NCBI GenBank assembly: GCA_051954635.1
Contig: JBQCHO010000109.1
Span: 10,411-74,410 of the forward strand
Source: Sphingomonas sp.
Lineage (GTDB): Bacteria; Pseudomonadota; Alphaproteobacteria; Sphingomonadales; Sphingomonadaceae
Length of the DNA: 64,000 bases
Direction of reading: 5' to 3'
Positions 5,260 to 37,601 of the stretch are shown one piece after another; the stretch's first letter is position 1; each line of letters opens with the position of its first letter. The position numbers and the translations under genes are program-made. The notes under the pieces are model-generated. The model had not been told where the DNA came from and searched no databases. It saw only the letters and a list, made by a program, of their open reading frames with translations.

Positions 5260-5261
5260 CC

Positions 5262-6646: not shown

Positions 6647-6648
6647 TC

Positions 6649-9673: not shown

Positions 9674-9678
9674 CTGCC

Positions 9679-10443: not shown

Positions 10444-10454
10444 TCGAGCGAGTT

Positions 10455-10498: not shown

Positions 10499-10575
10499 GT
10501 CGCGGGGCCTCGATGGGTCAGCCCCCTTCAAGGCCAGCGGGGCTCCGCGACACATTTTCAGTGACCTGAAGGACA

Positions 10576-11886: not shown

Positions 11887-11890
11887 TCCG

Positions 11891-12664
11891 ATGCCTTTCA
11901 AGCGCAGCGTCCAGCGTTACGGGCGCACTCCCGAGCCCTCGACGCCGTTCCAGCGCGCCGGACAATTATGGGACGAGCGGATCGGCTCGGCGCGCGTCCA
12001 GGCGCGCAACTGGCGGCTGATCGCGTTCGGCCTGCTCGCGGCATCGGGCGCGATGACCGGCGGCCTGATCTGGCAATCGCTGCAAAGCCGGATCGTCCCC
12101 TATGTCGTCGAGGTCGACCGATTGGGCGAGGCGAGGGCCGTCAACCCGGCGGAGGCGGCCTATCAGCCGACCGATCCGCAGGTCGCGTGGCACCTTGCCC
12201 GGTTCGTCGAGCATGTTCGCTCGCTTTCGCTCGATCCGGTTCTGATGCGCAGCAATTGGCTATCGGCTTACGACTTCGTGACCGACCGCGGCCGGCGCTT
12301 CCTCGATGCCTATGCGCGCGCAGCCGATCCGTTCGGCCATATCGGCGAAAAGACCGTGTCGGTCCAGGTCGACAGCGTGTTGCGCGCGTCGGATCGCTCG
12401 TTTCAGATCGATTGGACTGAGACCGCGTTCGAACGCGGCACCCCCGCCGGCGTCTCGCACTGGACCGGCATTTTCACCGTTGCGATCAAGCCGCCGACCT
12501 CGGCCGACACGCTGCGCAAGAATCCGCTCGGTGTCTATGTCGACGCGATTGACTGGAGCCGCGATCTCGACCCCGTGCCGATCGCGCCGCCGTCGTCGAG
12601 GGCAGCCACGTCGAACCCGAAGCCCGCCGACCGCCCCAATATCGATCCGGAGACGCAGTCATGA
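11891..12664 (+). CDS. trbF: TrbF (VirB8-like)
   Basis: MPFKRSVQRYGRTPEPSTPFQRAGQLWDERIG N-terminus and a single TM (WRLIAFGLLAASGAM). Internal ATG of ORF 11420-12664. Confidence 0.85.
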   Translation: MPFKRSVQRYGRTPEPSTPFQRAGQLWDERIGSARVQARNWRLIAFGLLAASGAMTGGLIWQSLQSRIVPYVVEVDRLGEARAVNPAEAAYQPTDPQVAWHLARFVEHVRSLSLDPVLMRSNWLSAYDFVTDRGRRFLDAYARAADPFGHIGEKTVSVQVDSVLRASDRSFQIDWTETAFERGTPAGVSHWTGIFTVAIKPPTSADTLRKNPLGVYVDAIDWSRDLDPVPIAPPSSRAATSNPKPADRPNIDPETQS

Positions 12665-13515
12665 CCCATTTCGTCCTCAGCGCCATCGGCGCTTCGAGCG
12701 CACTTCTGCTGACAGTCCCCTGCTGCGCGCATCCGCACGCGCGCTCGCACGCACGTCAGGGCATGTCGGCGGCGGCGCGCGTCGCCGCGGCCGATCGCGC
12801 AGCGATGCTCGGTCCTGAGCGCAACGCGTCCGATGCCACACAGGTTTATTCCTATACAGAAGGATCGATCTACCATGTCGTCACCGCGCCGGGGCGCGTC
12901 ACCGATATCGCGCTCGAGCCCGGCGAGACGCTCGGCTCGGTCGCGAGTGGCGACACCGTGCGCTGGATCATCGGCGACACTACCAGCGGCGCCGGCGCCG
13001 GCCAGCGAAGCCATGTCCTGGTCAAGCCGGTCGCTAGCGGCCTATCGACCAATCTCGTCGTCACCACCGATCGGCGTACCTATCACCTCCTGCTGACGAG
13101 CAATGCCCACGACGCGGCGACTTCGATCGCATGGCGCTACCCCGCCGACGCGCTGATCGCAGTGCAGACAGCCCCAAAAACCGTCGCTAAAACCACGCCT
13201 GCCTCGACCGGATTCGATGTCGCGGCGTTGCGGTTCGATTACGTCATTTCCGGGGACCATCCGACCTGGCGACCGCTACGCGCCTTCGACGACGGCGTGC
13301 GAACCTATATCGAATTTCCAGCGGCGCTCGCTACCGACGAGGCACCGCCCTTGTTCGTCATCACCGACGGGCAGGCTGAACTCGTCAACTATCGTGTCGA
13401 TCGACGCTATTATGTCGTCGATCGGCTGTTCGACGTTGCCGAGTTAAGGCTCGGCACGCGCCATCAGCAGGTCGTCCGAATTTCGCGCGCAACGCGCGGA
13501 AAGGGCGGGGCATGA
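12661..13515 (+). CDS. trbG: TrbG (VirB9-like)
   Basis: Signal peptide and a beta-rich body. ATGA overlap with trbF. Operon position. Confidence 0.85.
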   Translation: MTHFVLSAIGASSALLLTVPCCAHPHARSHARQGMSAAARVAAADRAAMLGPERNASDATQVYSYTEGSIYHVVTAPGRVTDIALEPGETLGSVASGDTVRWIIGDTTSGAGAGQRSHVLVKPVASGLSTNLVVTTDRRTYHLLLTSNAHDAATSIAWRYPADALIAVQTAPKTVAKTTPASTGFDVAALRFDYVISGDHPTWRPLRAFDDGVRTYIEFPAALATDEAPPLFVITDGQAELVNYRVDRRYYVVDRLFDVAELRLGTRHQQVVRISRATRGKGGA

Positions 13516-14702
13516 CCGCGGCCGCGATGGAGCCGGCGGGGGACGAGGAAGCGTCGCCGGCGATTGCAGACAAGGTCCCGCCCGAAGCGCTTCGACTTCG
13601 CGCACCTGCAGCGCCGATCACCCGCTTTCAGCGCGGCCGAATCATCCTCCTCGCCGCCGCCGCGGCGTTCGCTGTCGCATTGGTCGCTGGCATGGCGCTG
13701 CGCTCACCCCATGCGTCGACCGCGGTGCCCCAGGTCGATGCGGAAATTCCAGCCAAAGGATCGAGCGAAGCGCTTGCCGGCCTCCCTAAGAGCTACGGTG
13801 ACGTACCGCGTCTGGGACCACCGCTCCCGGGCGATCTGGGCGAGCCGATCCTCGATCGCGCGCGCCAAATCGACGATGGTGCTCCTACGGCTCCGGTCGT
13901 GCCCAACGCCGCTGCAACCGCGCGCCAGGCGCGCCAACAAGCGCTAGAAGCGGCTCGTCGTTCGGCACTGCTTGTGACGCCGATGCGAGGGGAACCTGGG
14001 GCAGGGCGGGCGATGTCGTCATCACCGCGACTCTCCCAAGACCAATCGACCACCAGCCCTGGTATTGGCGGAAGCCAGCCGATTCCTGCCCGGAAAAAAA
14101 TGGACGAGACGACCGATCCTGCGCGGCTGACAGCGCCGGTCTCTCCCTATACGCTCAGCGCCGGCAGCATCATTGCTGCCAGTCTGATCACTGGGGTCAA
14201 TTCGGACTTGCCGGGTATGGTCGTCGCTCAGGTGACCCAGCGCGTGTTCGATAGCGCGACCGGCCGGGTGGTGTTGATCCCTCAGGGTTCGCGCCTGATC
14301 GGACGCTATGATCATGACGTCGTCTTCGGCCAGCAGCGTGCCCTGATTGTCTGGGACCGGCTGATCCTTCCCGATGGCCGCTCACTGCAACTCGACGACG
14401 AACCGGCGACCGACCGGTCCGGCTTTGCCGGGCTCAGCGATCGTGTCGATTCGCACGGCGGCGCCCTGGTCAAGGGCGCGGTGTTGTCGACGCTGCTCGG
14501 CGTCGGCAGCGATCTCAGCTTCAACGGTGGCAGCAAACTCGTCGATGCGCTCCGTCAGGCTGCCGGGCAGAATGTCGCCAATGCCGGCAATCGGCTCGTT
14601 TCCAAGTCGCTCGACATCAAGCCGACCCTCACCATCCGCCCCGGCGCGCGCGTTCTGGTCGTGTTGCACCGCGACCTCGTGCTTGCCCCCTGGCGCCAAT
14701 AG
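13512..14702 (+). CDS. trbI: TrbI (VirB10-like)
   Basis: N-terminal TM, a Pro-rich linker and a conserved C-terminal domain (GTRIPAxL-like SAGSIIAASLITGVNSDLPG). Overlaps the trbG stop. Confidence 0.85.
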   Translation: MTAAAMEPAGDEEASPAIADKVPPEALRLRAPAAPITRFQRGRIILLAAAAAFAVALVAGMALRSPHASTAVPQVDAEIPAKGSSEALAGLPKSYGDVPRLGPPLPGDLGEPILDRARQIDDGAPTAPVVPNAAATARQARQQALEAARRSALLVTPMRGEPGAGRAMSSSPRLSQDQSTTSPGIGGSQPIPARKKMDETTDPARLTAPVSPYTLSAGSIIAASLITGVNSDLPGMVVAQVTQRVFDSATGRVVLIPQGSRLIGRYDHDVVFGQQRALIVWDRLILPDGRSLQLDDEPATDRSGFAGLSDRVDSHGGALVKGAVLSTLLGVGSDLSFNGGSKLVDALRQAAGQNVANAGNRLVSKSLDIKPTLTIRPGARVLVVLHRDLVLAPWRQ

Positions 14703-17480: not shown

Positions 17481-19058
17481 TCAGATACCCTGACCGAAAT
17501 TGTGCAGCGGAAGACGGATTTTGCACCGAGCGCCGTCAGGACCGATCGTCAGGCTTGTCTCAGCATCGAGATCGTAGACCAGGCTGCGTTCGATCAAGTC
17601 CCGCCCGAAACCCTGGACCTGCTCGGTTTCGGCGACGGCGACGCCGTCCGGGCCGGCATCAAACCACGAGAAGGCGAGTACTGGGCATTCCGCCCCGTCT
17701 TCGATCCGCCAGCTCACATCGACTCGTCCGAGATCATTGCTTAGGCCGCCATATTTGACGGCATTGACCACCAGCTCATGGATGGCGAGGCCAAGCGTGT
17801 CAGCGATCTTGGGTGGAAGGCGCACTGTCGGTCCGGCGACGACTAGCCGATCATTCTCACGCGCATGATGGGCAAGCAGTTCATCCGCGACGAGCGTGGC
17901 TAAGTCGACTCCGGCGTGTGGGTTTCTGGTCATCAGCGATTGCGATCTTGCAAACGCATCGAGCCTCCCTTCAAAATTCATCTGAAAGTCCGCAACACTG
18001 GCGCTGCGCTCGAGTGTCCGGCGCGCGATCGACCGAACCATCGCCAAGGTATTGCGTACCCGGTGCTGCAGCTCGGCGACCAGCAAGCGTTCCTGGTCGC
18101 GGAGGGCCCGGAGATCGTTCACGTCCGACGAGGACCCGAGCCATTCGATGATGGCGCCTTGGCGGTTGCGCACGGGCGAGGCGCGTGTCTGGTACCAGCG
18201 GTAGCGGTCAGCTGCCATATCGTACACGCGATATTCAACGCTGAAAGCTATCGCGCTTTTGGCCAACCGCCAAGCTCGGTGCGCGCGCAGCCGATCGTCG
18301 GGGTGAACGCGTTCAAGCCACCCTTGCCCGAGGCTTGCATCACGCGGCTGGCCGGTGATCTCGCTCCATTGCGGACTAGCCCAAGTCCAGTTTCCATCCT
18401 CCTGGGCGCGCCAGAGGAGGAGCGGAACACCTTCCACCAATTGACTGAGCGCGTCTTTGGCCGTCTCGAGGTCATTAAGTGCAGCGCCGCGCTCGTCTTG
18501 GGACCGGCCGAGTTCTTCATCGAGCCGATAGGCAACCGATGCCAGGGTGCTGAGACGAAGCAGCAACCGCGCGTCCTCGCGCTGAAAGCGGCGCTGTTTA
18601 TCGTGTGAGACTGCCCATATCGCGCCGACTGCGGTTCCGTCGCAGCGAAGCGGCACCATCAGAATTTCGCAGATGCCCGGTTCGACTTTCGGTTCGGCAA
18701 AATATCGGCCAGGATCTTCGAACAGCAGCACGGTGTTGCGCGCCACGACGACGCCGCAGGGCGTTTCGTCAAGCTTGGCGGTTTTCCCGACATAGCCGGA
18801 CCATCTGCCTGAAACGGCGCGCCACAAGCAGCGCACTCCATCTTCTTGTGTGATACCTAGGCTGACGCCCGCGGACTCCGCGATTCCTGCTCTTACAATT
18901 GTATCGGCCAAAGCCTGCAGCGGGTCGCATTCCACTTGTCCCAAAACGGCGGAGAGGCCGGCCATCGCATCGGCCTCAAGCCGGTAGTCCGGCTCTCGCG
19001 TCGATCGAGACGCCAATTGGTCGGTGATCAAGACGTCGTCGAGCGTGGCGGACACCAT
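17481..19058 (-). CDS. Sensor histidine kinase, GAF-PAS-HWE/HisKA_2 type
   Basis: N-terminal GAF-like region, a PAS region (WRAQEDGNWTWASPQWSEITG...VHPDD) and an HWE-type phosphoacceptor ELQHRVRNTLAMV. The ATP-binding part is SWFDAGPDG...GFGRDLIE. Confidence 0.85.
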   Translation of the reverse strand: MVSATLDDVLITDQLASRSTREPDYRLEADAMAGLSAVLGQVECDPLQALADTIVRAGIAESAGVSLGITQEDGVRCLWRAVSGRWSGYVGKTAKLDETPCGVVVARNTVLLFEDPGRYFAEPKVEPGICEILMVPLRCDGTAVGAIWAVSHDKQRRFQREDARLLLRLSTLASVAYRLDEELGRSQDERGAALNDLETAKDALSQLVEGVPLLLWRAQEDGNWTWASPQWSEITGQPRDASLGQGWLERVHPDDRLRAHRAWRLAKSAIAFSVEYRVYDMAADRYRWYQTRASPVRNRQGAIIEWLGSSSDVNDLRALRDQERLLVAELQHRVRNTLAMVRSIARRTLERSASVADFQMNFEGRLDAFARSQSLMTRNPHAGVDLATLVADELLAHHARENDRLVVAGPTVRLPPKIADTLGLAIHELVVNAVKYGGLSNDLGRVDVSWRIEDGAECPVLAFSWFDAGPDGVAVAETEQVQGFGRDLIERSLVYDLDAETSLTIGPDGARCKIRLPLHNFGQGI

Positions 19059-19061: not shown

Positions 19062-19811
19062 CTACCCCATAGCAGCAGACGGCACGGGCTCACACTTCGG
19101 ATTGAGGTGATGGAGATAGGAGGGGTTGAACATCGCGATGCGGTGCAGTGCCGGAAGGTCCGGGATTGTCAGGATGCGGTTGTTGAGGGCGATGAGATTT
19201 TCGCGCCTGAGTTCCTGGAGCGTCCGGTTTACATGGACGGCGGTCATGCCCGTCGCTTCGGCCAGGTCGATCTGGGTGAGCGGCATTTCGCAGCGATCAT
19301 CCTCGGTCAGATGAACCGAATCCAGCCGCTCGAATAGTTCGGAGAACAGATGCGCGATCCGTTCGCGTGCGGTTCTCTGACCCAGGCTGACGGTCCATTC
19401 GCGCTGGATCGCGGCAACGACGAGACTCTCCATCCATAAAGCCCGCGAGATGGCAGGCCGGTGGGTGCACATATGCTCGACCAGATTTCGCGGCATCTCG
19501 GCGTAGGTAACCGGCGTCAGCGCACAGATCGAGTGATCCATTTCGTCGAGGAGGAAGACGTTCAAATCGCACAAGTCGCCGGGGAGGAGAAACGAGACGA
19601 TCTGGCGACGACCGTCGGGAAGCATCTTGTAGCGAAACGCCCAGCCGTCGACGACCAATTTGACGTGATGCGGCGTATCACCCTCGCGTATCAAATCTCG
19701 ACGTGCGCGCGCAGTGCGAACCGTCTGTCGGCAGATTTGAGCTATTGCATCCAGGTCGGCCTGGGAGAGCGGCGCGAACCGTTGCAGCTTCAAGGCCAGC
19801 AGGTCGTGCAA
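19062..19811 (-). CDS. Crp/Fnr-family transcriptional regulator
   Basis: A cNMP-binding-like N-terminal domain and a C-terminal HTH (LTQIDLAEATGMTAVHVNRTLQELR). Only 3 nt separate it from the downstream kinase gene. Confidence 0.85.
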   Translation of the reverse strand: MHDLLALKLQRFAPLSQADLDAIAQICRQTVRTARARRDLIREGDTPHHVKLVVDGWAFRYKMLPDGRRQIVSFLLPGDLCDLNVFLLDEMDHSICALTPVTYAEMPRNLVEHMCTHRPAISRALWMESLVVAAIQREWTVSLGQRTARERIAHLFSELFERLDSVHLTEDDRCEMPLTQIDLAEATGMTAVHVNRTLQELRRENLIALNNRILTIPDLPALHRIAMFNPSYLHHLNPKCEPVPSAAMG

Positions 19812-19941: not shown

Positions 19942-20364
19942 ATGAACCAACCACTTGCCATTGCTGGTAGCACGGTCCTACTCGTCGAAGACGAGTATCT
20001 GATCGCCGACGATCTAGCTCGCGATCTGACGGCGCATGGACTCACCGTTTTCGGTCCCGTGGCAACCGTCGAAGCGGCGGTCGAAGCGCTCGCGCAGAGC
20101 AACCCGGATTTTGCGATTCTCGACATCAACCTGCGCGGAGACCGCGTCTTCCCGCTTGCCGACCATCTGTCGGGGCGCGACATTCCTTATGTCTTCGCCA
20201 CCGGCTATGACGGCGACGCCATTCCGCCGCGGTTCGCAGATGTCGCGCGGCTCGAGAAACCGATCAGGACAGGCGACCTTCTCGTCACGCTCGAGAATCT
20301 CAGTTGCCGGTCGAGCGGATCGCCCACTCCCGAAATCCCCCCGCTGGGCGATCATCGCCACTGA
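19942..20364 (+). CDS. Single-domain response regulator of the FATGUY (PFxFATGY, SdrG/MrrA-like) family
   Basis: Receiver features VLLVEDEYLIADD and FAILDINL (phospho-Asp), with IPYVFATGY matching the PFxFATG[G/Y] signature. No output domain. Confidence 0.8.
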   Translation: MNQPLAIAGSTVLLVEDEYLIADDLARDLTAHGLTVFGPVATVEAAVEALAQSNPDFAILDINLRGDRVFPLADHLSGRDIPYVFATGYDGDAIPPRFADVARLEKPIRTGDLLVTLENLSCRSSGSPTPEIPPLGDHRH

Positions 20365-20419: not shown

Positions 20420-20444
20420 GGAACATGCCCGCTTTCCAGCGGTT
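20420..20444 (+). promoter_or_regulatory. Near-consensus sigma-EcfG-type promoter candidate
   Basis: GGAAC-N16-GGTT, with one mismatch in the -10 compared with CGTT. It lies upstream of the small ORF/SRPBCC/ADH/SDR gene string. Confidence 0.3.
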
Positions 20445-20514: not shown

Positions 20515-20703
20515 ATGGACGATGGAAAGAGGCTCGGCGAAGGCGGCGCAAAGGATCGACGTTCATCCTTGCGAGACGGTGATGATGATCCCGCGTTGCG
20601 CCACGAAAGTCGCCAGGCAGTTCTGAACCAGGGCAGCGCGACCCCTGAGGACTATCCCGATCGCGGCGTGTCGACACCGGCTGCGCCAGATGGAGATCGG
20701 TGA
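20515..20703 (+). CDS. Possible small acidic/hydrophilic protein (62 aa)
   Basis: Internal ATG of ORF 20386-20703, downstream of the promoter-like motif. The stop overlaps the next gene's start. No homology recognised. Confidence 0.3.
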   Translation: MDDGKRLGEGGAKDRRSSLRDGDDDPALRHESRQAVLNQGSATPEDYPDRGVSTPAAPDGDR

Positions 20704-21245
20704 TGACACAGACAGATGACGCACCCGCCCATGTCGCAAAATCCGATGACGTCCGGGCGGCGGTTGGCGAAGGCTCGGTCACCGGGCACACCGAAACCAT
20801 CAACCGCCCGCGTAAAGAACTTTATGCATTCTGGCGAAATTTCTCGAACCTTGCTGGTCTGATGGAGAATGTCGTCTCGGTGACCGAGATAGATGGCAAG
20901 CGTTCTCACTGGGTGGTTGCAGGCCCGACAGGCAATCTCGAATGGGATGCCGAGATCACCGAAGATGAGCCCGATCGGCTCATCGCGTGGCGATCGGTAA
21001 AAGGCGCGGATGTCGAACATTCGGGTCGGGTCGAATTCCGCGACGCTCCGCCAGGGCGCGGATCGTGGATCACCGCGACGATCGCCTACAAGCCTCCGGC
21101 GGGTTTTATCGGCAAGGCCGTCGCCAAGGTCACGCAGAAGGAGCCCGCCATACAGGCACGGCGAGACCTTCGCCGGTTCAAGCAATATTGCGAAACCGGC
21201 GAAATCGCGACGTCGACCCCGCCCAATCCCCAACCGAAATCCTGA
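20703..21245 (+). CDS. SRPBCC-family (cyclase/dehydrase-like) protein
   Basis: INRPRKELYAFWRNFSNLAGLMENVVSV...WRSVKGADVEHSGRVEFRDAPPGRG is typical of the SRPBCC/polyketide-cyclase fold family. Confidence 0.75.
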   Translation: MTQTDDAPAHVAKSDDVRAAVGEGSVTGHTETINRPRKELYAFWRNFSNLAGLMENVVSVTEIDGKRSHWVVAGPTGNLEWDAEITEDEPDRLIAWRSVKGADVEHSGRVEFRDAPPGRGSWITATIAYKPPAGFIGKAVAKVTQKEPAIQARRDLRRFKQYCETGEIATSTPPNPQPKS

Positions 21246-21257
21246 AGGAGTCCGGCT

Positions 21258-22439
21258 ATGCGTGCGCTCACCTGGCACGGCAAGCACGACGTCCGCGTCG
21301 ACAGCCATCCCGATCCCGAAATCATCAACCCCCGCGACGCGATCATCAAGGTCACCTCGACCGCGATCTGCGGTTCCGACCTCCATCTGTACGATGCCTA
21401 TATTCCAACCCTCGAAAAGGGCGATATTCTGGGCCACGAGTTCATGGGCGAGGTTGTCGATGTCGGGCCCGGCAGCTCACTCAAAAAGGGCCAGCGGGTC
21501 GTGGTTCCGTTCACCATTTCGTGCGGGAAATGCTTCTTTTGCGAGAAGCAGCAGTTTTCAGCCTGTGCGAATTCGATTCCCGCCGATAATGCCGATCTTG
21601 GGCAGGAACTCTACGGTCACCCCATGACCGGCCTGTTCGGCTATTCGCACCTGACCGGCGGCTATCCGGGCGGTCAGGCTGAATATGCTCGCGTTCCCTA
21701 TTCGGACATCGGGCCGATCGTTATTCCAGACGGGCTCGACGATGATACGGTGTTGTTTCTTTCCGATATCCTCCCGACGGGCTGGATGGCTGCGGAGAAT
21801 TGCGACATCGAGCCTGGCGACACGGTCGCGGTATGGGGCTGCGGTCCGGTCGGCCTGTTCGCTGTACAATCGGCGTTCAAGCTCGGGGCTCACCGCGTAA
21901 TTGCTGTCGACCATTTCCCACATCGGCTCGATCTCGCCAAGCGCTTCGGCGCCGAGACGATCAATTACAAGGAAACCGACACCTATCATGCGCTGATGGA
22001 GATGACTGGCGGCATCGGCCCCGACGCCTGCATCGATGCAGTTGGACTCGAGAGCCACGGCTTCTTTCTCGACAATGTCTGGGACCAGGTGAAGGTCTCG
22101 ACCTTCATGGGTACAGACCGCGCTCATGTTCTTCGCCAGGTCATTATTGCCTGTCGCAAGGGCGGACGAGTTTCCCTGCCTGGCGTTTATGGCGGCTTCG
22201 TCGACAAGTTCCCGATCGGTGCGCTGATGGAGAAGGGGCTGCAGGTGAAGAGCGGTCAGACCCATGTGCAGAAATATCTGCCCAAGCTTCTGAAGATGAT
22301 CGGTGAGGGCGAGCTCGACACCACCTTCCTGATCTCGCACCGGCTGCCGCTCGAAGAAGCGCCCAAGGGCTACGAAATGTTCAAGAACGAACAGAACGAA
22401 TGCACCAAAGTCGTGCTGAAACCGGGGATGGCGGCCTGA
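21258..22439 (+). CDS. Zinc-dependent alcohol dehydrogenase (glutathione-independent formaldehyde dehydrogenase-like)
   Basis: [14 protein letters not shown], structural-zinc Cys cluster ([15 protein letters not shown]) and GCGPVG Rossmann motif. AAGGAG RBS. Confidence 0.9.
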
Positions 22440-22456
22440 CCCTAAGGAGAGCGACA

Positions 22457-23230
22457 ATGCCCGATAAACTTGCAGTAATCACCGGCGCTTCGACCGGCAT
22501 CGGCAGAGAAATTGCCAAGCTCGCAGCGCAAGACGGTTTCGATCTCATCACCGTTGCCGACGAGCCGGGACTCGAAGCGGCAGCCGCCGACCTTCGCGCC
22601 GAGGGTGGGCAGATCGAGACGGTCGAAGCCGATTTGGCGACGTTCGAGGGCAATGACGCGCTGCTCGCCGCGATCGGCGACAGGAATGTGGATATCCTGG
22701 TCGCCAATGCCGGACGCGGCCTCGGCCATGCATTTATCGATCAGGACCCGGCGGACTGGCGCCACGTCATCGACACGAATGTCACCGGAACGACCTATCT
22801 GCTGCAGAAAATCGCCCGGAAGATGGTCCAGCAGAGAGGCGGTAAGATCCTTATCACGGGCTCGATCGCCGGATTGATTCCCGGCAGCTTCCAGGCCGTC
22901 TACAATGCGACCAAGGCTTACCTCGACAGCTTCTCCTACGCGCTGCGCGAGGAACTCAAAGATACCGGCGTATCGGTCACCGTGCTCATGCCCGGGCTGA
23001 CTGAGACCGAGTTCTTTCGCCGGGCCGGGATGCTCGACACGCCCGTCGGCGAAGACGAGAAAGCCGATCCTGCGAAGGTCGCCGCCGATGGCTGGAAAGC
23101 AATGAACGACGGTTCCGCCCATATCGTCTCGGGCTTCCAGAACAAGCTGCAGGCAGCGTTGTCGCACATCACGCCGGATACGATCTTGGCGAAAATGCAT
23201 AGCAGATTGGCAGACCCGCAGCGCGGCTGA
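22457..23230 (+). CDS. SDR-family oxidoreductase
   Basis: TGASTGIGRE, NAG and YNATKAY motifs. Internal ATG of ORF 22400-23230, preceded by AAGGAGAG. Confidence 0.85.
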   Translation: MPDKLAVITGASTGIGREIAKLAAQDGFDLITVADEPGLEAAAADLRAEGGQIETVEADLATFEGNDALLAAIGDRNVDILVANAGRGLGHAFIDQDPADWRHVIDTNVTGTTYLLQKIARKMVQQRGGKILITGSIAGLIPGSFQAVYNATKAYLDSFSYALREELKDTGVSVTVLMPGLTETEFFRRAGMLDTPVGEDEKADPAKVAADGWKAMNDGSAHIVSGFQNKLQAALSHITPDTILAKMHSRLADPQRG

Positions 23231-23791: not shown

Positions 23792-23979
23792 GGTCGTTCT
23801 CGTTATCGTTTAGCCCGCAGCAAAGGGTGAACCTATCGGGCAAGCGATCACAAATGTAAGGAAAGCTGGCAAAGTGGCAATCGGCTATGGTGTCGCGCTG
23901 GACCCATTGGGGTTATCGCCACGTCTTGTTCGGGGAGGAGCCGCCGGTGTCCAAAAAAAACCGGTCGCCGGACATCTTG

Positions 23980-24290
23980 CGGATCTTTCCACGATCAATC
24001 GCTTGACATGATGGCGACCGTTTCGTCCGACGACTTGACCTCGCGCAGCGTCAATCCGGCGTTCGAGCGGATCCTTCGGCTCGACTGAAGACACTTTGCT
24101 GGGGCGCACCTTCGTCGAGTTTGTCCATCCTGACGAGCGCGACGATCTTGGCATAGCGATCGCGGCGATCGACAGAAGAAACAATCCGATCGGCGTCGAG
24201 CACCGACCTGTCGCATCGATGCGCCTACCGCCGGGCTGCGTGGTTATGGCGCGGGCCGCGTCGGCTATGCCGAGGACTTGAGTGACGGGA
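23980..24290 (+). pseudogene. Degraded PAS-domain sensor fragment (multiple frame changes)
   Basis: VNPAFERIL, then a stop at 24086, then in another frame LLGRTFVEFVHPDERDD...GVEHR, then a further shift (AYRRAAWLW). No kinase or output domain follows. Confidence 0.4.
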
Positions 24291-24902
24291 ACCCACGTCG
24301 AACTGCTACGCGACTGGACCGACGGCGCCCCGAGCATTTGTCGGCGTTTATCGATATTCTGACAACGGCGCGGAACTATGCAGGCGCTGTTGGCGGGTCG
24401 CCCATGTGTACGTCCCGATATTCAGCGCGGCAAGATGATGACTGAGGCCGAAAAGTCTTCCCAGGCGGCGGTCGGTCTCTGTGCGACACTGAACATTCCG
24501 CCGGTCAAGCAGGGTCAGTCGGTAGCGATTTTGGCGGTCAACTGCGCCGGGGCCCCACACCTGCAGCGACAACGAGATCGCGCTTGTCGAGGCTCCCGCC
24601 GAACGAACCTCGCCGGCAGTCGAGCGAGCTTGAGCCGAGACAGCGCTCAGGACAAATGGGGTCAAGTATCGCGACCTCTTCAATTTCATGGACCAGGGTT
24701 ATCATCCAGCTTTTGTAGATGATGGCCGAGCGACCGCCTTGCAGGCCGCACTGACCGCGGGCCGAATGGCAATGCGTCCATAGCGCTAACAAGACAAAAC
24801 GCGCTCACATGGGTTAGCCGCTTCATTCGCTGCCCCCGAAACGACCGAGTAAATCCGCCAAAATTTTTCAAATCAGCCGGCATTTCTCGGGTCGGCGACC
24901 GC

Positions 24903-24927
24903 GGAACGGCGGCGGGGCGTACCCGTT
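24903..24927 (+). promoter_or_regulatory. Perfect sigma-EcfG-type (general stress response) promoter motif
   Basis: GGAAC (24903-24907), 16 nt, CGTT (24924-24927). It is followed by AGGAG and the ATG at 24947. Confidence 0.55.
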
Positions 24928-24946
24928 GCTAGGTCCAGGAGACCGT

Positions 24947-25249
24947 ATGACCGACAAACAGAATTACAAAGATCTTCCCCCCGAAGCTGGGGTAAAGCCC
25001 CGCTATACCGAGCCCGATCCGCCGCCCGGAGAAGTCGGCGCGCACGGCCATTATTCTGGACAGGAATATGACGCTCCTGGCCAGGCGGAGTGGCGCAGAA
25101 AGGCTGACAGGTCGCCGCCGCCCGGTGAGTTGAGCGGATCAGGCATCGGCGCCGGCGGCGGACAGGATGGCGAGGACTATGACAGCGATCCGCAAGGTGG
25201 CAGCGGCGTCCTGCCGGCTGCTGGAACGGGGTCAAAAGGGGAAGCCTGA
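24947..25249 (+). CDS. Small hydrophilic Gly/Pro/Asp-rich protein (100 aa)
   Basis: AGGAGA lies 5 nt upstream of the ATG, directly downstream of the EcfG-type motif. Predicted disordered and charged. No family recognised. Confidence 0.5.
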   Translation: MTDKQNYKDLPPEAGVKPRYTEPDPPPGEVGAHGHYSGQEYDAPGQAEWRRKADRSPPPGELSGSGIGAGGGQDGEDYDSDPQGGSGVLPAAGTGSKGEA

Positions 25250-25325
25250 TTTTTGCCGTGACCTCGCTGCGCTTTCGTGAGGGCGGCAGTGGACGGTGTC
25301 TCGATACCTACGCGACCGGGGAACC

Positions 25326-26873
25326 ATGCCAATGGGTCTGCTGCAGCCCCAGCTCATCATCGACGCCGCCGAACGCGAGCGGGGGTTGCGACTCCTGGTC
25401 AATGAGGCTTTGTTTTCGGGCGGGGCAGCAGCACTCACGACGGGCACCATCCTCACAGCCTTTGCTCTGCATCTCGACGCTTCGAACGTTATGATCGGAC
25501 TGCTCGCAAGCGTCCCGTTTGCAGCGCAGCTATTGCAGCTTCCAGCCATTCTGCTGGTTGAGCGGACTCGTCGTCGCAAGCTGATCGCAGTCCTGACCAG
25601 CATCATCGGCCGGCTGATGCTGGGCGTCATGGCCGTCACGGCGTTCTTGAAAGGCTCCTTTGCTCTTGCTCTCTTTCTGGGGGCGCAATTCATCCTCGCC
25701 GGGCTCGGTGCAATCGGCAGCTGCGCCTGGAACGCTTGGTTACGCGATCTCGCGCCAATAGAGCGTCTTGGCGTCGTGTTTGCCCGTCGCACGATGTGGC
25801 TGACTGCAGTGAACCTGGCATTGGGCCTCGCGGCTGCGCTTGCGCTGGCTCTGTCGCCCGAAGGGTCGATCGCTCGCAGCTGGGTTTTTGCCGGCATGTT
25901 CGCGATCGGTTGCCTGACGGGATTGATCAGTGCCCGAATAGTCTCCCAGATGCCCGAACCGCTGATGGCGCCTGCCGAAGGGCCGTTGCACCTCGCGGCG
26001 CTGTTGCGCCGCCCGCTGGGCGACGCCAATTTCAGGCGACTGCTTGCGTTCGTCGCGAGCTGGCAATTCGCGGTCAATCTGGCGACGCCGTTCTTCACTG
26101 TCTTCATCGTTCGCCAACTCGGGTTCGACGTGTCGTTCGTCATGATCCTGAGCGTCGTCAGTCAGGCTGCAAATATCCTCGCCCTTCGCCTCTGGGGCCG
26201 GCTCAGCGACCGGTTTGCGAACAAATCGGTGATGGCAGTCTGCGCTCCGGCTTATATTTTCTCGATCGTCGCGATGATCGGCGCATCGCAAATCCAGTCC
26301 CGGCTCGGGATCATGATCTGGCTGGGCGCGCTTCACGTCGCGATGGGCGTGTCGGTCGCGGGGGTCACGCTAGGGTCGACCAATATCGCGTTGAAACTAT
26401 CACCCAGCGGGTCGGCTACATCCTATGTCGCGGCCAATGCGATGGCGACCGCCGCGGCCGCCGGCTTGGCCCCGATCCTCGGTGGGTTGCTCGCGCAGTT
26501 CTTTGCTCAGCGGCGCTTTGAATTGCTGATGCGCTGGGCGGGACCGCACGGCTTGCTGAGCTTTTCCTTCGGCCTGACCCATTGGGATTTCTATTTTCTG
26601 TTGGCCGGCGTGATCGGCCTTTACGCGGTCCACCGCCTCTCTCTGGTCGCCGAACAGGGAGAAATCGAACGACGCGAAATGGTCAACCAGATGCTCGGCG
26701 AGACTCGCCGCACGATCCGCAATATCTCGACCGTAGCTGGCCTGCGCGCAGCGACCGATTTGCCGGCTACGCTGCTGCGCGATGCCCGCAAACGACTGCG
26801 TCGGCGTCTCCCAACGGCGCCGCGCTCCAACCGTCACCTATCGACACCGGCAAAAAAGGAGGAGCATCAATGA
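25326..26873 (+). CDS. MFS transporter
   Basis: About 12 hydrophobic segments with the MFS-like loop LLVERTRRRK, and a cytoplasmic C-terminal tail. An alternative GTG start is at 25296. Confidence 0.8.
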   Translation: MPMGLLQPQLIIDAAERERGLRLLVNEALFSGGAAALTTGTILTAFALHLDASNVMIGLLASVPFAAQLLQLPAILLVERTRRRKLIAVLTSIIGRLMLGVMAVTAFLKGSFALALFLGAQFILAGLGAIGSCAWNAWLRDLAPIERLGVVFARRTMWLTAVNLALGLAAALALALSPEGSIARSWVFAGMFAIGCLTGLISARIVSQMPEPLMAPAEGPLHLAALLRRPLGDANFRRLLAFVASWQFAVNLATPFFTVFIVRQLGFDVSFVMILSVVSQAANILALRLWGRLSDRFANKSVMAVCAPAYIFSIVAMIGASQIQSRLGIMIWLGALHVAMGVSVAGVTLGSTNIALKLSPSGSATSYVAANAMATAAAAGLAPILGGLLAQFFAQRRFELLMRWAGPHGLLSFSFGLTHWDFYFLLAGVIGLYAVHRLSLVAEQGEIERREMVNQMLGETRRTIRNISTVAGLRAATDLPATLLRDARKRLRRRLPTAPRSNRHLSTPAKKEEHQ

Positions 26874-29125
26874 CGACCACCGCACAAGCAGAGCGCAGCG
26901 ACGCTTCCGGCAACCGCAAGGCAGAAGCAAAAAACGCGGCAACTGCAAGTCTTTATGTGCTGGCACTGCGCCAGGAGCTGGCAAATGGGCTGAAGCATAT
27001 CGGCAGTCTGTCGATCGGCGATCATCGTATCGAAGTCGCAGGCGGAGACGACTCGCTGTGGGCGATCATCCGGCGGCCCGGTCGCGGTGGTCTCGCGGTG
27101 CGCGCAGCTTTTGCCCCCGGTGGTTTTCGCGAGCTGAGCAAAGGGCGCTGCGACAACAGCAGGTTCGAGCTCGAATGCATCAGCGCGCTCGGCCGCCATC
27201 ATCTCTGCTTCGACGCGGGCGGTGCCGACGTGCGCCGATTTCACCTGCAAGCTTGGCTGACGCCGTCGCATGCCATGCTCGTTCCCTTTGCGCCGCGCGA
27301 CCTGTACCCATTAGACAGCAACGACGACCCTCTGGCGGCGACCGGTCGCGTCGAGGCTGCGCAGCGCGGTCCGAATTCGGGGCTTATCTACTTTTCGATC
27401 GACGATCCGGCGTTCGGACACGTCCTCTATTTCCAGGACCTCACCAATCTCAACCCGTACTTCCGCGCGACCGATACGACGCCGATGGGCGCCGTCGGCG
27501 GCGAATGGCCGGAGCTTGGTTATCTGCCGCCGACGCCACCGCAAAGCGGAACGCCGCCGGTTCGACCGTTACCTGCAAATCGAAAGACGATGCTCTCCGA
27601 CGCGGTCATCGTCCTGCGCGACGAAGCTGCGGCAAGTGAAGTCGAAAAGGCGCAGCAATTCATTCAGATGCTCGGCGTCGCGTACAAAACGATACAGCTT
27701 CCAAAGATCGAGTATCGCGATTGGGTCGGACGGGCGGATCAGACGCTAGCCGATCTCGGCAGCGCCTCGAGTGCAACATGCCGAGCTTATGGGCACCGCT
27801 ATATTCGTCCCTACACCGATGCGGAATATCCCGACAGCATGGTGCAGATGACGCTGATTGCCTCGCTCCACGACTTCGCGTCTTGGAGCGGTCGCGACGT
27901 GCCGCTGCTGGGCGAACTCGCTGCTGGAATGTCAAAATTCTACGATAGGCGGTTGAAGACGCTGCGGCGCTATTTGCCAAATGTCGGCAAGGACAAGAAC
28001 GCGAATGCGGTCGATTCCTGGTACCTGCTTCACCCCTTGCGTAACCTCGCTCGGCTTGCGCTCGCCGGCGAGCAATGGGCCAAGCGACTCCTGTTGCGCT
28101 CGATCGAATTTCCGATCCGGTCTGCGCACCATTTCAACTATATTTGGCCCATTCAATATGATGTCCGCGACTTTTCGGTGATCACCGAAACCCGCGGGGA
28201 CGAGGAACATGGTCAGACCGATGTCGGTGGCTTCTATGCTTTTGTCATGTTGCAAATGTTCGAGCTTACCGAAGATGACCGGTATCTAAATGAAGCGCGT
28301 GCGGCGATCGACGCTGCGATGGGTATGCGCTTCGAGCTCGAATATCAGGCCAATCTGACGGCTTGGGGGGCGGCAGCGTGCCTCCGCTTATGGCGCATTA
28401 CCAACGACGAACGGTACCGCGATCAGAGCTATGCTTATCTCGCGAGCTTCTTCCATAATTGCGAAATTTGGGAGTCCGAAATTAAAGCGGCTGAACATTA
28501 CAGCAATTTTCTTGGCGCGACCGCACTCCACGATTCTCCTTACATGGCGATGTACGAATGCTTCGACAGCTTTGCGGCGTTTGAACACCTCCTGCGCGAT
28601 TGCGGTCCAGAGATTGAACCCGCTGCGCGGATGCTGGTCAGCGAATACTGCAAATATGTACTGTACCGCGCCTGGTTCTATTATCCAGACGCTCTTCCAG
28701 CGGGCATCCTGGCCGATGAAATCCGCAACGGATTTATCGATCGCAAGCTGTCGTTCCCGCTCGAGGATCTCTATGCAGATGGCAGCCCTCCTGGGCGGGT
28801 CGGGCAGGAGATTTACGGCGCGGGAGCGCCCTTTATCTTCGCGTCGCGCGCCTTCCATACGATCGATGAGGCACCTTTCCTATTATTCTGTAATCATTTT
28901 ATATTAAGCAAAGAACGGACCGGCGAACGGGCGGTTAGCGTGCAGCTGACCGGCGGCGAAACGTGTATGGCATTGCTCGCCGTGATCCGGACCGGGCGAA
29001 AAAAGCTGCCGACGGTCACGCTCGTTGCACCCGACGGCGACCAATTCCGACCGAGCTGCGTCGCAGAAGACCGTATCGAGTTTCGCGTACCTGCTGATGC
29101 CCGCGTCGTTCTGAACTGGCATTGA
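26870..29125 (+). CDS. Large cytoplasmic protein of unknown function (751 aa)
   Basis: AAGGAGGAG RBS and ATGA overlap with the MFS stop. No signal peptide, TM segment or P-loop. Aromatic-rich helical segments. The ORF is long and uninterrupted in its frame. Confidence 0.8.
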   Translation: MTTTAQAERSDASGNRKAEAKNAATASLYVLALRQELANGLKHIGSLSIGDHRIEVAGGDDSLWAIIRRPGRGGLAVRAAFAPGGFRELSKGRCDNSRFELECISALGRHHLCFDAGGADVRRFHLQAWLTPSHAMLVPFAPRDLYPLDSNDDPLAATGRVEAAQRGPNSGLIYFSIDDPAFGHVLYFQDLTNLNPYFRATDTTPMGAVGGEWPELGYLPPTPPQSGTPPVRPLPANRKTMLSDAVIVLRDEAAASEVEKAQQFIQMLGVAYKTIQLPKIEYRDWVGRADQTLADLGSASSATCRAYGHRYIRPYTDAEYPDSMVQMTLIASLHDFASWSGRDVPLLGELAAGMSKFYDRRLKTLRRYLPNVGKDKNANAVDSWYLLHPLRNLARLALAGEQWAKRLLLRSIEFPIRSAHHFNYIWPIQYDVRDFSVITETRGDEEHGQTDVGGFYAFVMLQMFELTEDDRYLNEARAAIDAAMGMRFELEYQANLTAWGAAACLRLWRITNDERYRDQSYAYLASFFHNCEIWESEIKAAEHYSNFLGATALHDSPYMAMYECFDSFAAFEHLLRDCGPEIEPAARMLVSEYCKYVLYRAWFYYPDALPAGILADEIRNGFIDRKLSFPLEDLYADGSPPGRVGQEIYGAGAPFIFASRAFHTIDEAPFLLFCNHFILSKERTGERAVSVQLTGGETCMALLAVIRTGRKKLPTVTLVAPDGDQFRPSCVAEDRIEFRVPADARVVLNWH

Positions 29126-29351
29126 CGGTGGGCGTGCTTCGACCCTCCAAGGGGTTTGCCTCGCTCGGGATGATCGCCCCCGCTCGGCAGAGTTCTGGGC
29201 CGCCACGAGCTCAGTGTCGGGTGCGTAGCCGCCCTTCGCTCGCGAACTGTCTGCTTGTAGGCGATGGTGCCGAAGATCGCCGAAACATCCGCTCGCACCA
29301 CCCCATCACGATGCCGGGTGCAGACGCTCGCCATTCACGGAGCGGTTGCTA

Positions 29352-30398
29352 ATGGTCCGGACGAACCAGTTGCTGCCAGACGAAGCACGACCGATGGAGG
29401 CAAAACTCGTCGGCGAGCTGCCGCAAACCGGGCAATTGCAATTTGAACCGAAATGGGATGGCTTCCGAGCACTGGTTGCGCGCGACGGCGATACCGTCGA
29501 GATCCGCTCGAAGTCTGGCAAATCGCTGGCGCGCTTCTTTCCTGAAATCGTCACGATGGTTCTGGAGCTACCGAAGCGACGTTTCGTCGTCGATGGCGAG
29601 CTTCTCCTTCCGATCGGACCGACACTTTCATTCGACGCTCTGCAACAACGGCTTCATCCCGCAGCGAGCCGCATTGCCCGACTGTCGCGTGAAACGCCTG
29701 CTGAGTTCATGATGTTCGATTGCCTGGCCGTCGACAACGATGACTTGACCGGGGCGTCGCTTATCGAGCGTCGGCACAGCCTCGAGGCCTTTTTCGCCAA
29801 GTGTTGCCGACCGGGGCTCCGGCTATCGCCCAAGACCGAAGATCCGGCGGTCGCGCTTCAATGGCTTGCTAGCAGTGGCGGCGCGCTCGATGGAATCGTC
29901 GCAAAGCGGCTGGAGGAACACTACAAATTCGGTGAGCGTGCAATGCTCAAGCTCAAGCTGCAGCGGACTGCCGACTGCGTCCTAGGCGGTTTCAGGCGAT
30001 CGAAGGAGGGGAAGGTGGTCTCGCTGCTCCTCGGGCTCTTCAACGAACAGGGGCATCTCGACCATGTCGGCTTTTGCTCGGCCTTTGGCGAGGTCGATAT
30101 GGCGGCCCTTAGCCTCAAGCTAGCGAAGAACGCCGGCGGCGCAGGCTTCACCGGTAAGACGCCGGGTGGCCCTAGTCGCTGGAACGGTGGGCGCGAAAAG
30201 CCCTGGGAGCCCTTACAGCCGCAGTTGGTCGTCGAAGTTTCCTACGACCAGGTGACCGGGCAAAGATTTCGCCATGGCACTCGGTTCCTTCGCTGGCGTC
30301 CCGACAAGGCGCCCGCTCAATGTACCGTTGACCAGCTCGAGCACGAGATGCGCCCTGCAGAAATGAAGGGTCTGCTCGAGGCAAGCTCTAGTATCTAA
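29352..30398 (+). CDS. ATP-dependent DNA ligase (stand-alone LigC/LigD-ligase-domain type)
   Basis: Adenylation motif I FEPKWDGFRAL (KxDG), then EGIVAK-like DGIVAKR, KLK and an OB-fold C-terminus (RFLRWRPDK). Confidence 0.85.
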   Translation: MVRTNQLLPDEARPMEAKLVGELPQTGQLQFEPKWDGFRALVARDGDTVEIRSKSGKSLARFFPEIVTMVLELPKRRFVVDGELLLPIGPTLSFDALQQRLHPAASRIARLSRETPAEFMMFDCLAVDNDDLTGASLIERRHSLEAFFAKCCRPGLRLSPKTEDPAVALQWLASSGGALDGIVAKRLEEHYKFGERAMLKLKLQRTADCVLGGFRRSKEGKVVSLLLGLFNEQGHLDHVGFCSAFGEVDMAALSLKLAKNAGGAGFTGKTPGGPSRWNGGREKPWEPLQPQLVVEVSYDQVTGQRFRHGTRFLRWRPDKAPAQCTVDQLEHEMRPAEMKGLLEASSSI

Positions 30399-30432: not shown

Positions 30433-30458
30433 GGCACTGTAGCGACCATTCAAGCGTT
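30433..30458 (+). promoter_or_regulatory. Near-consensus sigma-EcfG-type promoter candidate
   Basis: GGCAC-N17-CGTT (one -35 mismatch), ~30 nt upstream of the GTG at 30489. Confidence 0.3.
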
Positions 30459-31273: not shown

Positions 31274-31416
31274 GACGATTTCGACAGGCTTATCGCGCGC
31301 GCCCGTCGGTGGAGTAGGCGCCGCGTCTTCGTCAGCCTCATAAGCTTAATGTCGATTGCAACGATTTGGCGCAACTCGGAAAAACCATTGCGCGTTGTTG
31401 CTTCTGGAGATGACCC

Positions 31417-36328: not shown

Positions 36329-36404
36329 TGGTGGAGCCGTGGGGAATCGAACCCCTGACCTCTGCAGTGCGATTGCAGCGCTCTCCCATCTGAGCTACGG
36401 CCCC
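36329..36404 (-). tRNA. tRNA-Ala (anticodon CGC)
   Basis: The reverse complement folds as a cloverleaf: GGGGCCG acceptor with G3:U70, GCTC/GAGC D-stem, CTGCA-ATCGCAC-TGCAG anticodon arm, GGGGTTCGATTCCCC T-arm, and encoded CCA. Confidence 0.9.
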
Positions 36405-36538: not shown

Positions 36539-36563
36539 GGAACATCGCCGCTTTCCTCCCGTT
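36539..36563 (+). promoter_or_regulatory. Perfect sigma-EcfG-type promoter motif
   Basis: GGAAC (36539-36543), 16 nt, CGTT (36560-36563). It lies 70 nt upstream of the ATG at 36633. Confidence 0.55.
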
Positions 36564-36632: not shown

Positions 36633-37601
36633 ATGGGCTACGAACGATATCCGCGAAACACCGACCCGCAAGGCGACTATTACGGCCGCCGCGATCCGCA
36701 GGATTACGGCGCCGACTACGGCTCGGGTCGCGACTTCAGCTATTCGAGCGCGCGCGACTATGAAGCCGCGGGCGAGATCGGCCGCAACGATTGGCGCGGC
36801 AGCCGTCGGGCGACCTATGGCTATGGCGACGATGGCTATGCCAATACCGGCACCTATTATGGCGGTCGTCGAGCGACCTATTCGCGCGACCGCTCGGCCG
36901 ATCGGCCTTATTATGGTAGCTATGCCGCCGATCGCGATCGTCTTGGCGATACCGACCGCAGCCGGCGGTCGCTGAGCGGCAATTATGGCCGTCAGCCGCA
37001 GGGTTACGACTATGACGAGCGCGGCTTCATGGCGCGCGCCGGCGACGAGGTCCGCTCGTGGTTCGGCGACGACGAGGCCGAGCGCCGCCGCGAGATGGAC
37101 CAGCGCTACGACGAACGCTACGGTGATCGCTGGGGCAGCCCCTATGGTCGCGACCAGGACTATCACGGCTGGCGCAAGCAGCAGATCGACGCGCTCGACC
37201 GCGACTATGACGAATATCGCCGTGAGAACCATCAGAAGTTCCATAACGAGTTCGGCGCCTGGCGCTCGGAGCGCCAGGGTCAGCGCACCGCGCTCGGCCG
37301 CGTCGCCGAACATATGGACGTGGTCGGCTCGGACGGCGCGCATGTCGGCACTGTCGACAAGGTGCGCGGCGATCGGATCTTGCTGACCAAGAGCGATCCC
37401 GACGCCGGCGGCCACCATCATTCGATCCCTTCACGCTGGATCCAGTCGGTCGACGACAAGGTGACGATCCGCAAGACGGCGGACGAAGCGCACAAGCAGT
37501 GGAAGGACGAGGAGCGCAACCAGGCGATGTTCGGCGACGACAATCGCTACGACGTCGGCACCTCGCACAATCTCAACCGGAGTTTCTCCGGCACCTATTG
37601 A
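36633..37601 (+). CDS. SWFGD-motif / DUF2171-domain protein with a Tyr/Arg/Asp/Gly-rich low-complexity N-terminal half
   Basis: SWFGDDEAERRR motif. The C-terminal part (HMDVVGSDGAHVGTVDKVRGDRILLTKSDPDAGGHHHSIP) is typical of DUF2171. AAGGAGAG RBS. Confidence 0.8.
   Translation: MGYERYPRNTDPQGDYYGRRDPQDYGADYGSGRDFSYSSARDYEAAGEIGRNDWRGSRRATYGYGDDGYANTGTYYGGRRATYSRDRSADRPYYGSYAADRDRLGDTDRSRRSLSGNYGRQPQGYDYDERGFMARAGDEVRSWFGDDEAERRREMDQRYDERYGDRWGSPYGRDQDYHGWRKQQIDALDRDYDEYRRENHQKFHNEFGAWRSERQGQRTALGRVAEHMDVVGSDGAHVGTVDKVRGDRILLTKSDPDAGGHHHSIPSRWIQSVDDKVTIRKTADEAHKQWKDEERNQAMFGDDNRYDVGTSHNLNRSFSGTY

Follow-up and report, generated by a model that had tools for sequence, protein, structure and literature searches.

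Promoters of the alphaproteobacterial general-stress sigma factor EcfG (group ECF15) carry the signature GGAAC-N16/17-CGTT, which was established experimentally in sphingomonads (PMC6599016; PMC7083833). For Sphingomonas melonis Fr1 the motif was derived as GGAAC-N17-20-GTT, and GCAAC variants of the −35 box are found among the EcfG-dependent genes of this strain (PMC6599016, Table 1). Described targets include small hydrophilic proteins, hypothetical proteins, short-chain dehydrogenases/reductases (SDRs) and zinc-dependent alcohol dehydrogenases (Zn-ADHs), furthermore a CRP-type regulator, an ATP-dependent DNA ligase and PRC-barrel/DUF2171-type proteins (PMC6599016; PMC7083833). On the side of mobile DNA, ICE3 of Sphingopyxis granuli TFA is an integrative and conjugative element (ICE) that is integrated at a tRNA gene, carries major facilitator superfamily (MFS) transporters together with stress genes and is activated by stress; EcfG promoters on its cargo were not analysed (bioRxiv 10.64898/2025.12.11.693706). 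Here we describe a stretch of 64,000 nucleotides from Sphingomonas sp. (contig JBQCHO010000109.1 of assembly GCA_051954635.1), in the following called the window, in which an EcfG-type promoter lies 5′ of genes for a 100-aa hydrophilic protein (the mini gene), an MFS transporter and a 751-aa protein. We consider it probable that this promoter, which belongs to a cassette with the mini gene, drives all three genes as one stress-induced unit, and predict the 751-aa protein to be a six-hairpin protein that resembles sugar enzymes.

Results

The promoter and the mini-protein family

The motif at 24903 (Table 1) matches the consensus exactly and is correctly oriented. As claimed in the original prediction, a start codon preceded by AGGAG follows about 20 nt further on; the precise distance from the end of the −10 box to ATG 24947 is 19 nt. 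The site thus lies less than 100 bp from the coding sequence, fits the promoter-to-gene distance distribution in S. melonis and would give the mini mRNA a 5′ leader of only ~12 nt. Exact matches to GGAAC-N16/17-CGTT are found twice on both strands of the window, with 0.85 expected, and 25 out of 100 shuffles of the window sequence also reached at least two. The caution that such a motif should turn up about once per 64 kb by chance was hence well placed, and the count by itself is uninformative. Both exact matches are intergenic, correctly oriented and 5′ of plausible stress genes. In contig L074, which is 99% identical to the window (loci and contigs used for comparison are cited by L numbers), the motif is unchanged despite substitutions at nearby positions.

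The 24903 promoter is quasi-palindromic (GGAACG...CGTTGC), and its minus strand reads GCAAC-N16-CGTT at 24929-24905 with no gene downstream. Quasi-palindromic exact sites likewise occur in L076, L079 and L104, in some cases with a divergent gene. A promoter and terminator scan of 24300-29600 detected no sigma-70-like promoter and no terminator, neither after the mini gene nor between the genes. Leader and spacer contain no riboswitch or known small RNA, and an Rfam scan of the whole window returned two tRNAs only.

The mini-protein consists of 20% Gly and 13% Pro, with a grand average of hydropathy (GRAVY) of −1.22 and a pI of 4.5. In composition it is hence a hydrophilin, for which Gly above 6% and a hydrophilicity index above 1 are the defining features. 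It matched no Pfam or NCBIfam model. Its homologues form 34 clusters of 86-125 aa with 43-59% identity, in addition to one near-identical cluster, and share the invariant or nearly invariant motifs DIPPEAGKRP, YSGQEYD..GQAEWR and GSGxGAGGG..GEDYDSD. They occupy unrelated gene contexts, standing alone and followed by unrelated or convergent genes. An exact EcfG motif lies 5′ of the homologue at three distinct loci (L078/L086, L079, L093), and a motif with one mismatch, GGAAC..GGTT or TGAAC..CGTT, was found for L085, L087, L091, L092, L094-96 and L098. Altogether, three exact and ~10 one-mismatch cases among ~17 distinct loci stand against ~0.13 expected, given a background of 2.5e-4 per nucleotide and strand for motifs with at most one mismatch; these statistics, as those below, were drawn from related genomes that are not phylogenetically independent and from crudely predicted gene starts. 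In every motif-bearing locus the motif ends 19-28 nt before the ATG with AGGAG in between, in the conserved layout CGTT, 8 to 12 nt, AGGAG, 5 to 7 nt, ATG. As the same motif recurs in the same place within unrelated contexts, the promoter belongs with the mini gene as a cassette. From these comparisons, the mini-proteins are a new hydrophilin-like family that appears to travel with its promoter.

Mini-protein and 751-aa families were found close together in only one other case, a single metagenomic lineage (L081/L082, 399-4339). Here, a 741-aa homologue with 57% identity and its own GGAAC-N16-GGTT, a 77-aa open reading frame (ORF), an isochorismatase gene and a mini homologue lie within 4 kb.

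Table 1. Promoter, genes and further features in window coordinates
Feature	Position	Strand	Remarks
GAF-PAS-HWE histidine kinase	17481-19058	−	cargo
CRP-type regulator	19062-19811	−	cargo
Single-domain response regulator	~19942-20364	+	cargo; PYVFATGY (FATGUY/SdrG-like)
GGAAC-N16-GGTT	20420-20444	+	5′ of genes 20516-23230
EcfG-type promoter	24903-24927	+	−35 GGAAC 24903-24907, 16-nt spacer, −10 CGTT 24924-24927; exact consensus match
Shine-Dalgarno AGGAG of mini gene	24939-24943	+	read from sequence
Mini gene	24947-25249	+	100-aa acidic Gly/Pro-rich hydrophilic protein (translation)
Mini-MFS spacer	25250-25331	+	82 nt; no terminator, no EcfG-like motif
MFS transporter gene	25332-26873	+	513 aa; ATG 25332; alternative starts ATG 25326, GTG 25296
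Translational coupling site	26858-26873	+	Shine-Dalgarno GGAGGAG 26858-26864; ATGA 26870-26873, 751-aa ATG overlapping MFS TGA
751-aa protein gene	26870-29125	+	ORF; predicted cytoplasmic protein
GGCAC-N17-CGTT	30433-30458	+	1 mismatch; 30 nt before Iron_permease (PF04120) gene
GCAAC-N17-CGTT	31371-31396	+	1 mismatch; 20 nt before 64-aa ORF
tRNA-Ala	36329-36404		coincides with shift in third-position GC; probable ICE boundary
Second exact GGAAC-N16-CGTT	36539-36563	+	69 nt before DUF2171 (PRC-barrel-like) gene 36633-37601

Upstream regions of the 751-aa and MFS genes in other genomes

Having been called an orphan, the 751-aa protein turned out to be a member of a large Sphingomonadales family. 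Its homologues form more than 1,625 clusters, most of them from Sphingomonas and related genera, and wherever a name is given it is 'hypothetical'. A profile search yielded 875 representatives at 50% clustering (E ≤ 0.001), and homologues also reside on Asticcacaulis plasmids. We fetched 73 genome loci of this family, 66 of which were evaluable for an upstream motif. An exact GGAAC with a −10 box of at most one mismatch ends 9-46 nt, mostly 29-37 nt, before the 751-aa start in 30 of these 66 loci, and four further loci gain a GGAAC motif after correction of mis-called starts, with ~0.6 expected overall. Counted as GGAAC-N16/17-xxTT with its end 29-37 nt from the ATG, the motif is present in at least 31 of the 66 genomes. 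Irrespective of the −10 box, the GGAAC pentamer occurs 62 times within 260 nt upstream of the 751-aa genes, 44 of them in one 40-nt bin, as against 12-30 scattered occurrences for composition-matched control pentamers. In a GGAAC-anchored alignment, where the −35 columns are fixed by construction, the spacer holds ~0.1-0.3 bits per column and one T column of the −10 box 1.1 bits. The family motif agrees with the one derived for S. melonis Fr1 (PMC6599016).

The MFS orthologues carry GCAAC, CGAAC or GGCAC followed by N16/17-CGTT, ending 10-14 nt before their ATG. Exact motifs also precede a patatin-MFS-751-SDR-ADH cluster in L076 and, on the Novosphingobium plasmid pP6W1, a 751-SDR-GH130 ('glycosidase') cluster next to Ku and Hsp20. 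In the window, nearby and in related loci, typical genes of the general stress response (GSR) are found beside such motifs, namely DUF2171 and Iron_permease, with Ku, Hsp20 and DUF892 as neighbours. Upstream of the orthologues of all three families, the boxes and not the spacer are conserved; the divergence of the spacers argues for selection on the boxes themselves. The upstream comparisons hence make the mini, MFS and 751-aa families look like regular EcfG targets in sphingomonads, and by motif conservation the 751-aa family with its MFS partner is a conserved in-silico EcfG target across Sphingomonadaceae. For the window site, recurrence at the same distance before mini homologues and enrichment before the 751-aa and MFS orthologues bear out the proposed promoter type: 24903-24927 very probably is a real general-stress (EcfG-type) promoter.

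Two further upstream elements were seen in other genomes. In L004, L006, L011 and L058, the MFS and 751-aa genes are separated by 15-40 nt, and this gap contains a GAAAC-N16-GGTT whose end is 8-9 nt from the 751-aa ATG; the motif may serve as a weak internal EcfG-like promoter without a leader. Some 25-30 nt 5′ of the MFS −35 box, a conserved AT-rich element such as aaaactcaATGAtATaGATCAg or ctttctcgGTAACTTATGTTg occurs in L014, L022, L025, L031, L033, L035, L036, L045, L049-L052, L068, L069, L072 and L073; it could be an operator for some regulator. The window lacks this AT-rich element.

Gene order and coupling

Three genes on the same strand follow the promoter as originally described, the MFS gene being placed there 46-76 nt after the mini gene. 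Its candidate starts at 25296, 25326 and 25332 lie 46, 76 and 82 nt past the mini stop, and alignment with the conserved M-x-L-x-PQ N-terminus of the orthologues favours ATG 25332. The protein belongs to PF07690 (MFS_1; E = 5e-21, 75.4 bits with a cut-off of 33.4) and has multiple hydrophobic segments and a basic cytoplasmic C-terminal tail. Neither NCBIfam nor the names of its orthologues, which are 55-84% identical and annotated merely as 'MFS transporter', indicated a specific subfamily.

The folding of the 82-nt spacer RNA is no more stable than that of shuffled sequence (z = +0.56), and the GCAAC/CGAAC-N16/17-CGTT promoter of the MFS orthologues is absent from it. In the 90 nt before the 751-aa start, the best EcfG-like match has three mismatches. 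Such a sequence, CCAAC-N16-CGTC at 26811-26835, lies 34 nt before the 751-aa ATG; as ~0.2 matches of this quality are expected by chance in a region of this size, we do not claim it as a decayed ancestral promoter. The ATGA overlap between the MFS and 751-aa genes is also present in L074 and L075. The three genes thus share a strand, are separated by a short gap and an overlap, and have no internal terminator and no EcfG- or sigma-70-like site between them. Lack of own promoters, lack of a terminator, ATGA overlap and short gaps together make a single transcript most likely.

Linkage of the genes across genomes holds for one part of the unit. In 30 of the 73 genomes an MFS gene adjoins the 751-aa gene, and since this pair recurs in co-directional, convergent and divergent arrangements, that is, through rearrangements, a functional link is supported. 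The order of all three genes is kept solely in L074, and no mini homologue lies within 6 kb of a 751-aa gene in any of the 73 genomes. In the loci with tight coupling of MFS and 751-aa genes (L001-L004, L006, L011, L058, L075, L076), any EcfG-like motif precedes the MFS gene or the entire operon; with ~90-100 nt between the two genes, there is usually one EcfG-like motif for each. Most often the 751-aa gene is accompanied by a translationally coupled SDR gene (43 of 72 loci), which lies directly downstream and in many cases overlaps its stop codon. Zn-ADH (32), MFS (25-30, in all three orientations), GH130 (12), lactonase (9) and patatin (7 of 72 loci) follow.

Predicted fold of the 751-aa protein

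The 751-aa protein matched no Pfam or NCBIfam model. AlphaFold models, with predicted template modelling (TM) scores of 0.86 and 0.87, place an (alpha/alpha)6 barrel (aa ~250-661) between two beta-sandwiches, one N-terminal (aa 28-190) and one C-terminal (aa 662-751). Foldseek related the predicted fold with probability 1.0 to structures of GH76, AGE, GH88, GH94 and GH127. The target-normalised TM score of the barrel is 0.64 to GH76 and ~0.5 both to GH88 and to the AGE superfamily with its sugar isomerases and epimerases, at 9-14% sequence identity. The protein is hence predicted to have a six-hairpin glycosidase-like fold.

Sequence and profile searches against solved structures gave only a marginal match to a GH76 hairpin (E 0.01-0.06). 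We reject membership in GH76, as its catalytic Asp-Asp pair, in the one stretch that could be aligned, falls on the family-invariant Ala-Asn A494-N495. Five carboxylates, D382, E475, E563 and E632-D633, are invariant even in relatives of 22-27% identity, which would fit an acid/base enzyme with a carbohydrate substrate; some of these distant relatives bear a CBM96 module or sorting domains of the type IX secretion system (T9SS). Enzymes of the AGE superfamily have paired catalytic histidines and an arginine at the centre of the barrel. In sequence comparison, close relatives of the 751-aa protein all keep H388, H421 and H529, and no histidine is invariant across distant ones. The protein shows no transmembrane-like hydrophobic segment and no hydrophobic N-terminal stretch and is therefore probably cytoplasmic. 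Judged from the models, the family looks like an undescribed group of carbohydrate-active-enzyme-like proteins. A structure search against viral proteins was uninformative, and an anti-phage defence role was rejected as PADLOC matched none of the three proteins.

The mobile element and its cargo

The three-gene unit had been assigned to ICE cargo, and the surroundings agree with this. Trb/VirB-type conjugation genes occupy 442-14702 (DUF3363, TraG/VirD4, VirB11-like, TrbE/VirB4, VirB8, CagX/VirB9, TrbI/VirB10), with the conjugation module at 3.2-14.7 kb, and GC content at third codon positions (GC3) rises at ~36.3 kb from 0.66-0.76 to 0.8-0.9, with a tRNA-Ala gene at the shift. From the conjugation module, the GC3 drop and the tRNA gene it follows that the unit lies in the cargo of a conjugative element, which probably is an ICE, with a plasmid origin as the alternative. 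A search of a plasmid collection found distant homologues only, so the window region is not represented there. The Pfam scan, which covered part of the window ORFs, detected no integrase; no second attachment (att) repeat is present in the window, and the other end of the element falls beyond it.

Beyond the tRNA-Ala gene, and thus outside the element, lies the exact motif at 36539; the host itself hence appears to use the consensus, and this motif and its DUF2171 gene probably belong to the host core genome. The GGAAC-N16-GGTT at 20420 precedes an ORF for a hydrophilic protein of 62 aa (ATG 20516) and genes for an SRPBCC/Polyketide_cyc protein, a Zn-ADH and an SDR; judging from this layout, it may mark a second EcfG-driven operon. 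Among the regulators in the cargo, the HWE kinase and the FATGUY response regulator are parts typical of the GSR. An SRPBCC protein, Zn-ADH, SDRs, isochorismatase, ATP-dependent DNA ligase and the Iron_permease gene are also present. By analogy, this mix looks like a GSR regulon, closely mirroring the EcfG regulon list of S. melonis.

Directly 5′ of the 24903 promoter, a decayed PAS-type sensor gene (23885-24870, + strand) shows, compared with L074, frameshifts, stop codons and a 168-bp deletion.

Discussion

Our analyses suggest that a composite, stress-induced mini-MFS-751 operon is likely transcribed from the promoter of the mini cassette. Under stress, PhyR-NepR would release EcfG, and EcfG-bound RNA polymerase would initiate ~6-8 nt after position 24927. 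From the resulting short-leader mRNA the hydrophilin-like protein and the MFS transporter would be made and, through translational coupling, the putative six-hairpin enzyme as well. A glycoside or sugar-derived solute might then cross the membrane through the transporter and be cleaved or isomerised by the enzyme in the cytoplasm. Processing of the product could fall, in most genomes, to the coupled SDR, frequently joined by a Zn-ADH or GH130 enzyme. The promoter-leader-mini cassette, which stands alone elsewhere in Sphingomonas, would on this element have its place 5′ of the MFS-751 pair.

Several points weigh against this interpretation. Both the EcfG dependence and the three-gene operon are deduced from sequence. 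The motif count in the window, taken alone, is not significant, and because the compared loci share ancestry, the enrichment statistics are inflated. The usual SDR is missing after the 751-aa gene of the window; 3.6 kb further upstream are an SDR and a Zn-ADH, the latter 43% identical to the 751-linked ADH family. Orthologues of the genes were not identified in the published EcfG regulon tables of S. melonis and S. granuli, where matching was possible by annotation, motif prefixes and neighbouring locus tags and no candidate could be confirmed without sequences; #1483/#1484 (an SDR and a hypothetical protein, log2 −5.1), #3278, #3087/#3088 and SGRAN_1403-1405 were considered in this way, and none was confirmed as orthologous. 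Enzymatic function and carbohydrate substrate of the 751-aa protein are hypothetical, as it matches no CAZy-type family by sequence, the GH76 pair is not conserved and TM scores reach only ~0.5-0.64 at ~11% identity. The mini gene was never seen beside MFS or 751-aa genes in the 73 genomes, so that its juxtaposition here could be incidental and the promoter might serve the mini gene only.

This last possibility deserves consideration, although we regard it as rather unlikely. The promoter would be real, and transcription of the MFS and 751-aa genes would start separately, at a promoter not recognised as such within or close to the 82-nt spacer, or would result from weak read-through. Promoter and mini gene indeed stand alone elsewhere, before unrelated or convergent genes, and MFS and 751-aa orthologues normally own their promoters. 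Yet neither a terminator nor a stable hairpin follows the mini gene in the window, the spacer offers no sigma-70-like or EcfG-like site, the promoter usual for the MFS gene is missing together with its AT-rich element, and L074 retains the same arrangement. One may also ask whether a different ECF sigma factor, of the host or the element, reads a similar AAC/CGT consensus in response to a signal other than PhyR-NepR-EcfG. AAC at −35 together with CGT at −10 is common to many ECF sigma factors, and ecfG, nepR and phyR are absent from the Pfam-scanned ORFs of the window, which lie within its first 37.7 kb. We consider such a factor quite improbable, since the complete GGAAC-N16/17-CGTT is the established signature of EcfG in sphingomonads (PMC6599016; PMC7083833), the same motif precedes typical GSR genes, and the cargo kinase and response regulator are of the kind found in the GSR. 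That the motif is a chance match devoid of promoter function would accord with its expected frequency in 64 kb and with a quarter of the shuffles, but is hardly credible, as homologous loci with differing flanks keep it at the same place, in the same orientation and at a similar distance from the ATG, it is identical in L074, and both exact matches of the window precede stress-type genes.

Going beyond the stress unit itself, we may tentatively speculate, with more doubt than conviction, that the element as a whole is a portable extension of the GSR, with putative promoters for the host EcfG at 24903, 20420, 30433 and 31371 at least and its own kinase, SdrG-like and CRP-type regulators, and that the 751-aa protein with its MFS partner defines a new stress-induced family of carbohydrate-active enzymes. 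In that case, the 751-aa family together with its MFS partner might act on a glycoside or compatible solute in sphingomonads.

If the proposed three-gene unit is correct, the GSR regulon would gain a hydrophilin-like family, an MFS transporter and a large (alpha/alpha)6 family that has no Pfam model. For the 751-aa family, both a regulatory setting and a condition for its study would be defined, and its partners SDR, Zn-ADH, GH130 and MFS would point to a stress-linked sugar or solute pathway. Moreover, stress-regulon genes, promoters and some signalling parts could move between sphingomonads on a conjugative element. The advance is incremental, as the EcfG site is textbook and small hydrophilic targets are typical; new are the 751-aa and MFS proteins as putative targets, the promoter-linked hydrophilin-like family and the GSR-like mobile cargo. 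Overall, the unit is a believable and fairly ordinary addition to a known regulon, located on a mobile element.

Compared with the sigma-EcfG promoters of S. melonis Fr1 and S. granuli TFA, the window site shares the consensus, the distance of less than 100 bp to the coding sequence and a short or missing leader. The 751-aa family alignment likewise shows the conserved −35 and flexible −10 box of known EcfG promoters. In contrast to these mapped promoters, the predicted site lies on conjugative-element cargo and not on the core chromosome, and one promoter appears to replace three separate ones. The mini-protein resembles hydrophilins, late embryogenesis abundant (LEA)-like and other small stress proteins in its Gly-rich, hydrophilic and acidic composition, its probable disorder and its gene's position behind a stress promoter, but it has no sequence kinship to a described family and carries motifs of its own (YSGQEYD, GEDYDSD).

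With the six-hairpin enzymes, i.e., the GH76 alpha-1,6-mannanases, the AGE group (YihS, mannose isomerase, cellobiose 2-epimerase) and GH88, the 751-aa protein shares the predicted (alpha/alpha)6 barrel, and with phosphorylases of the GH94/GH65 type the predicted layout of a barrel between two beta-sandwiches. It differs from six-hairpin enzymes in its low identity, the lack of a profile match and its predicted cytoplasmic location and stress regulation. The catalytic Asp-Asp pair of GH76 is not kept, and unlike AGE enzymes with paired histidines, the family-invariant residues are carboxylates. Mannan catabolism combines an epimerase with GH130 and a transporter, and the pairing of the 751-aa gene with GH130 and a transporter might be read as recalling this logic. 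In its features, finally, the element resembles ICE3 of S. granuli TFA, being conjugative, having a tRNA gene at its probable boundary and being equipped with MFS and stress cargo, whereas, compared with ICE3 as described, its cargo includes an HWE kinase, a FATGUY response regulator and several EcfG-type promoters.

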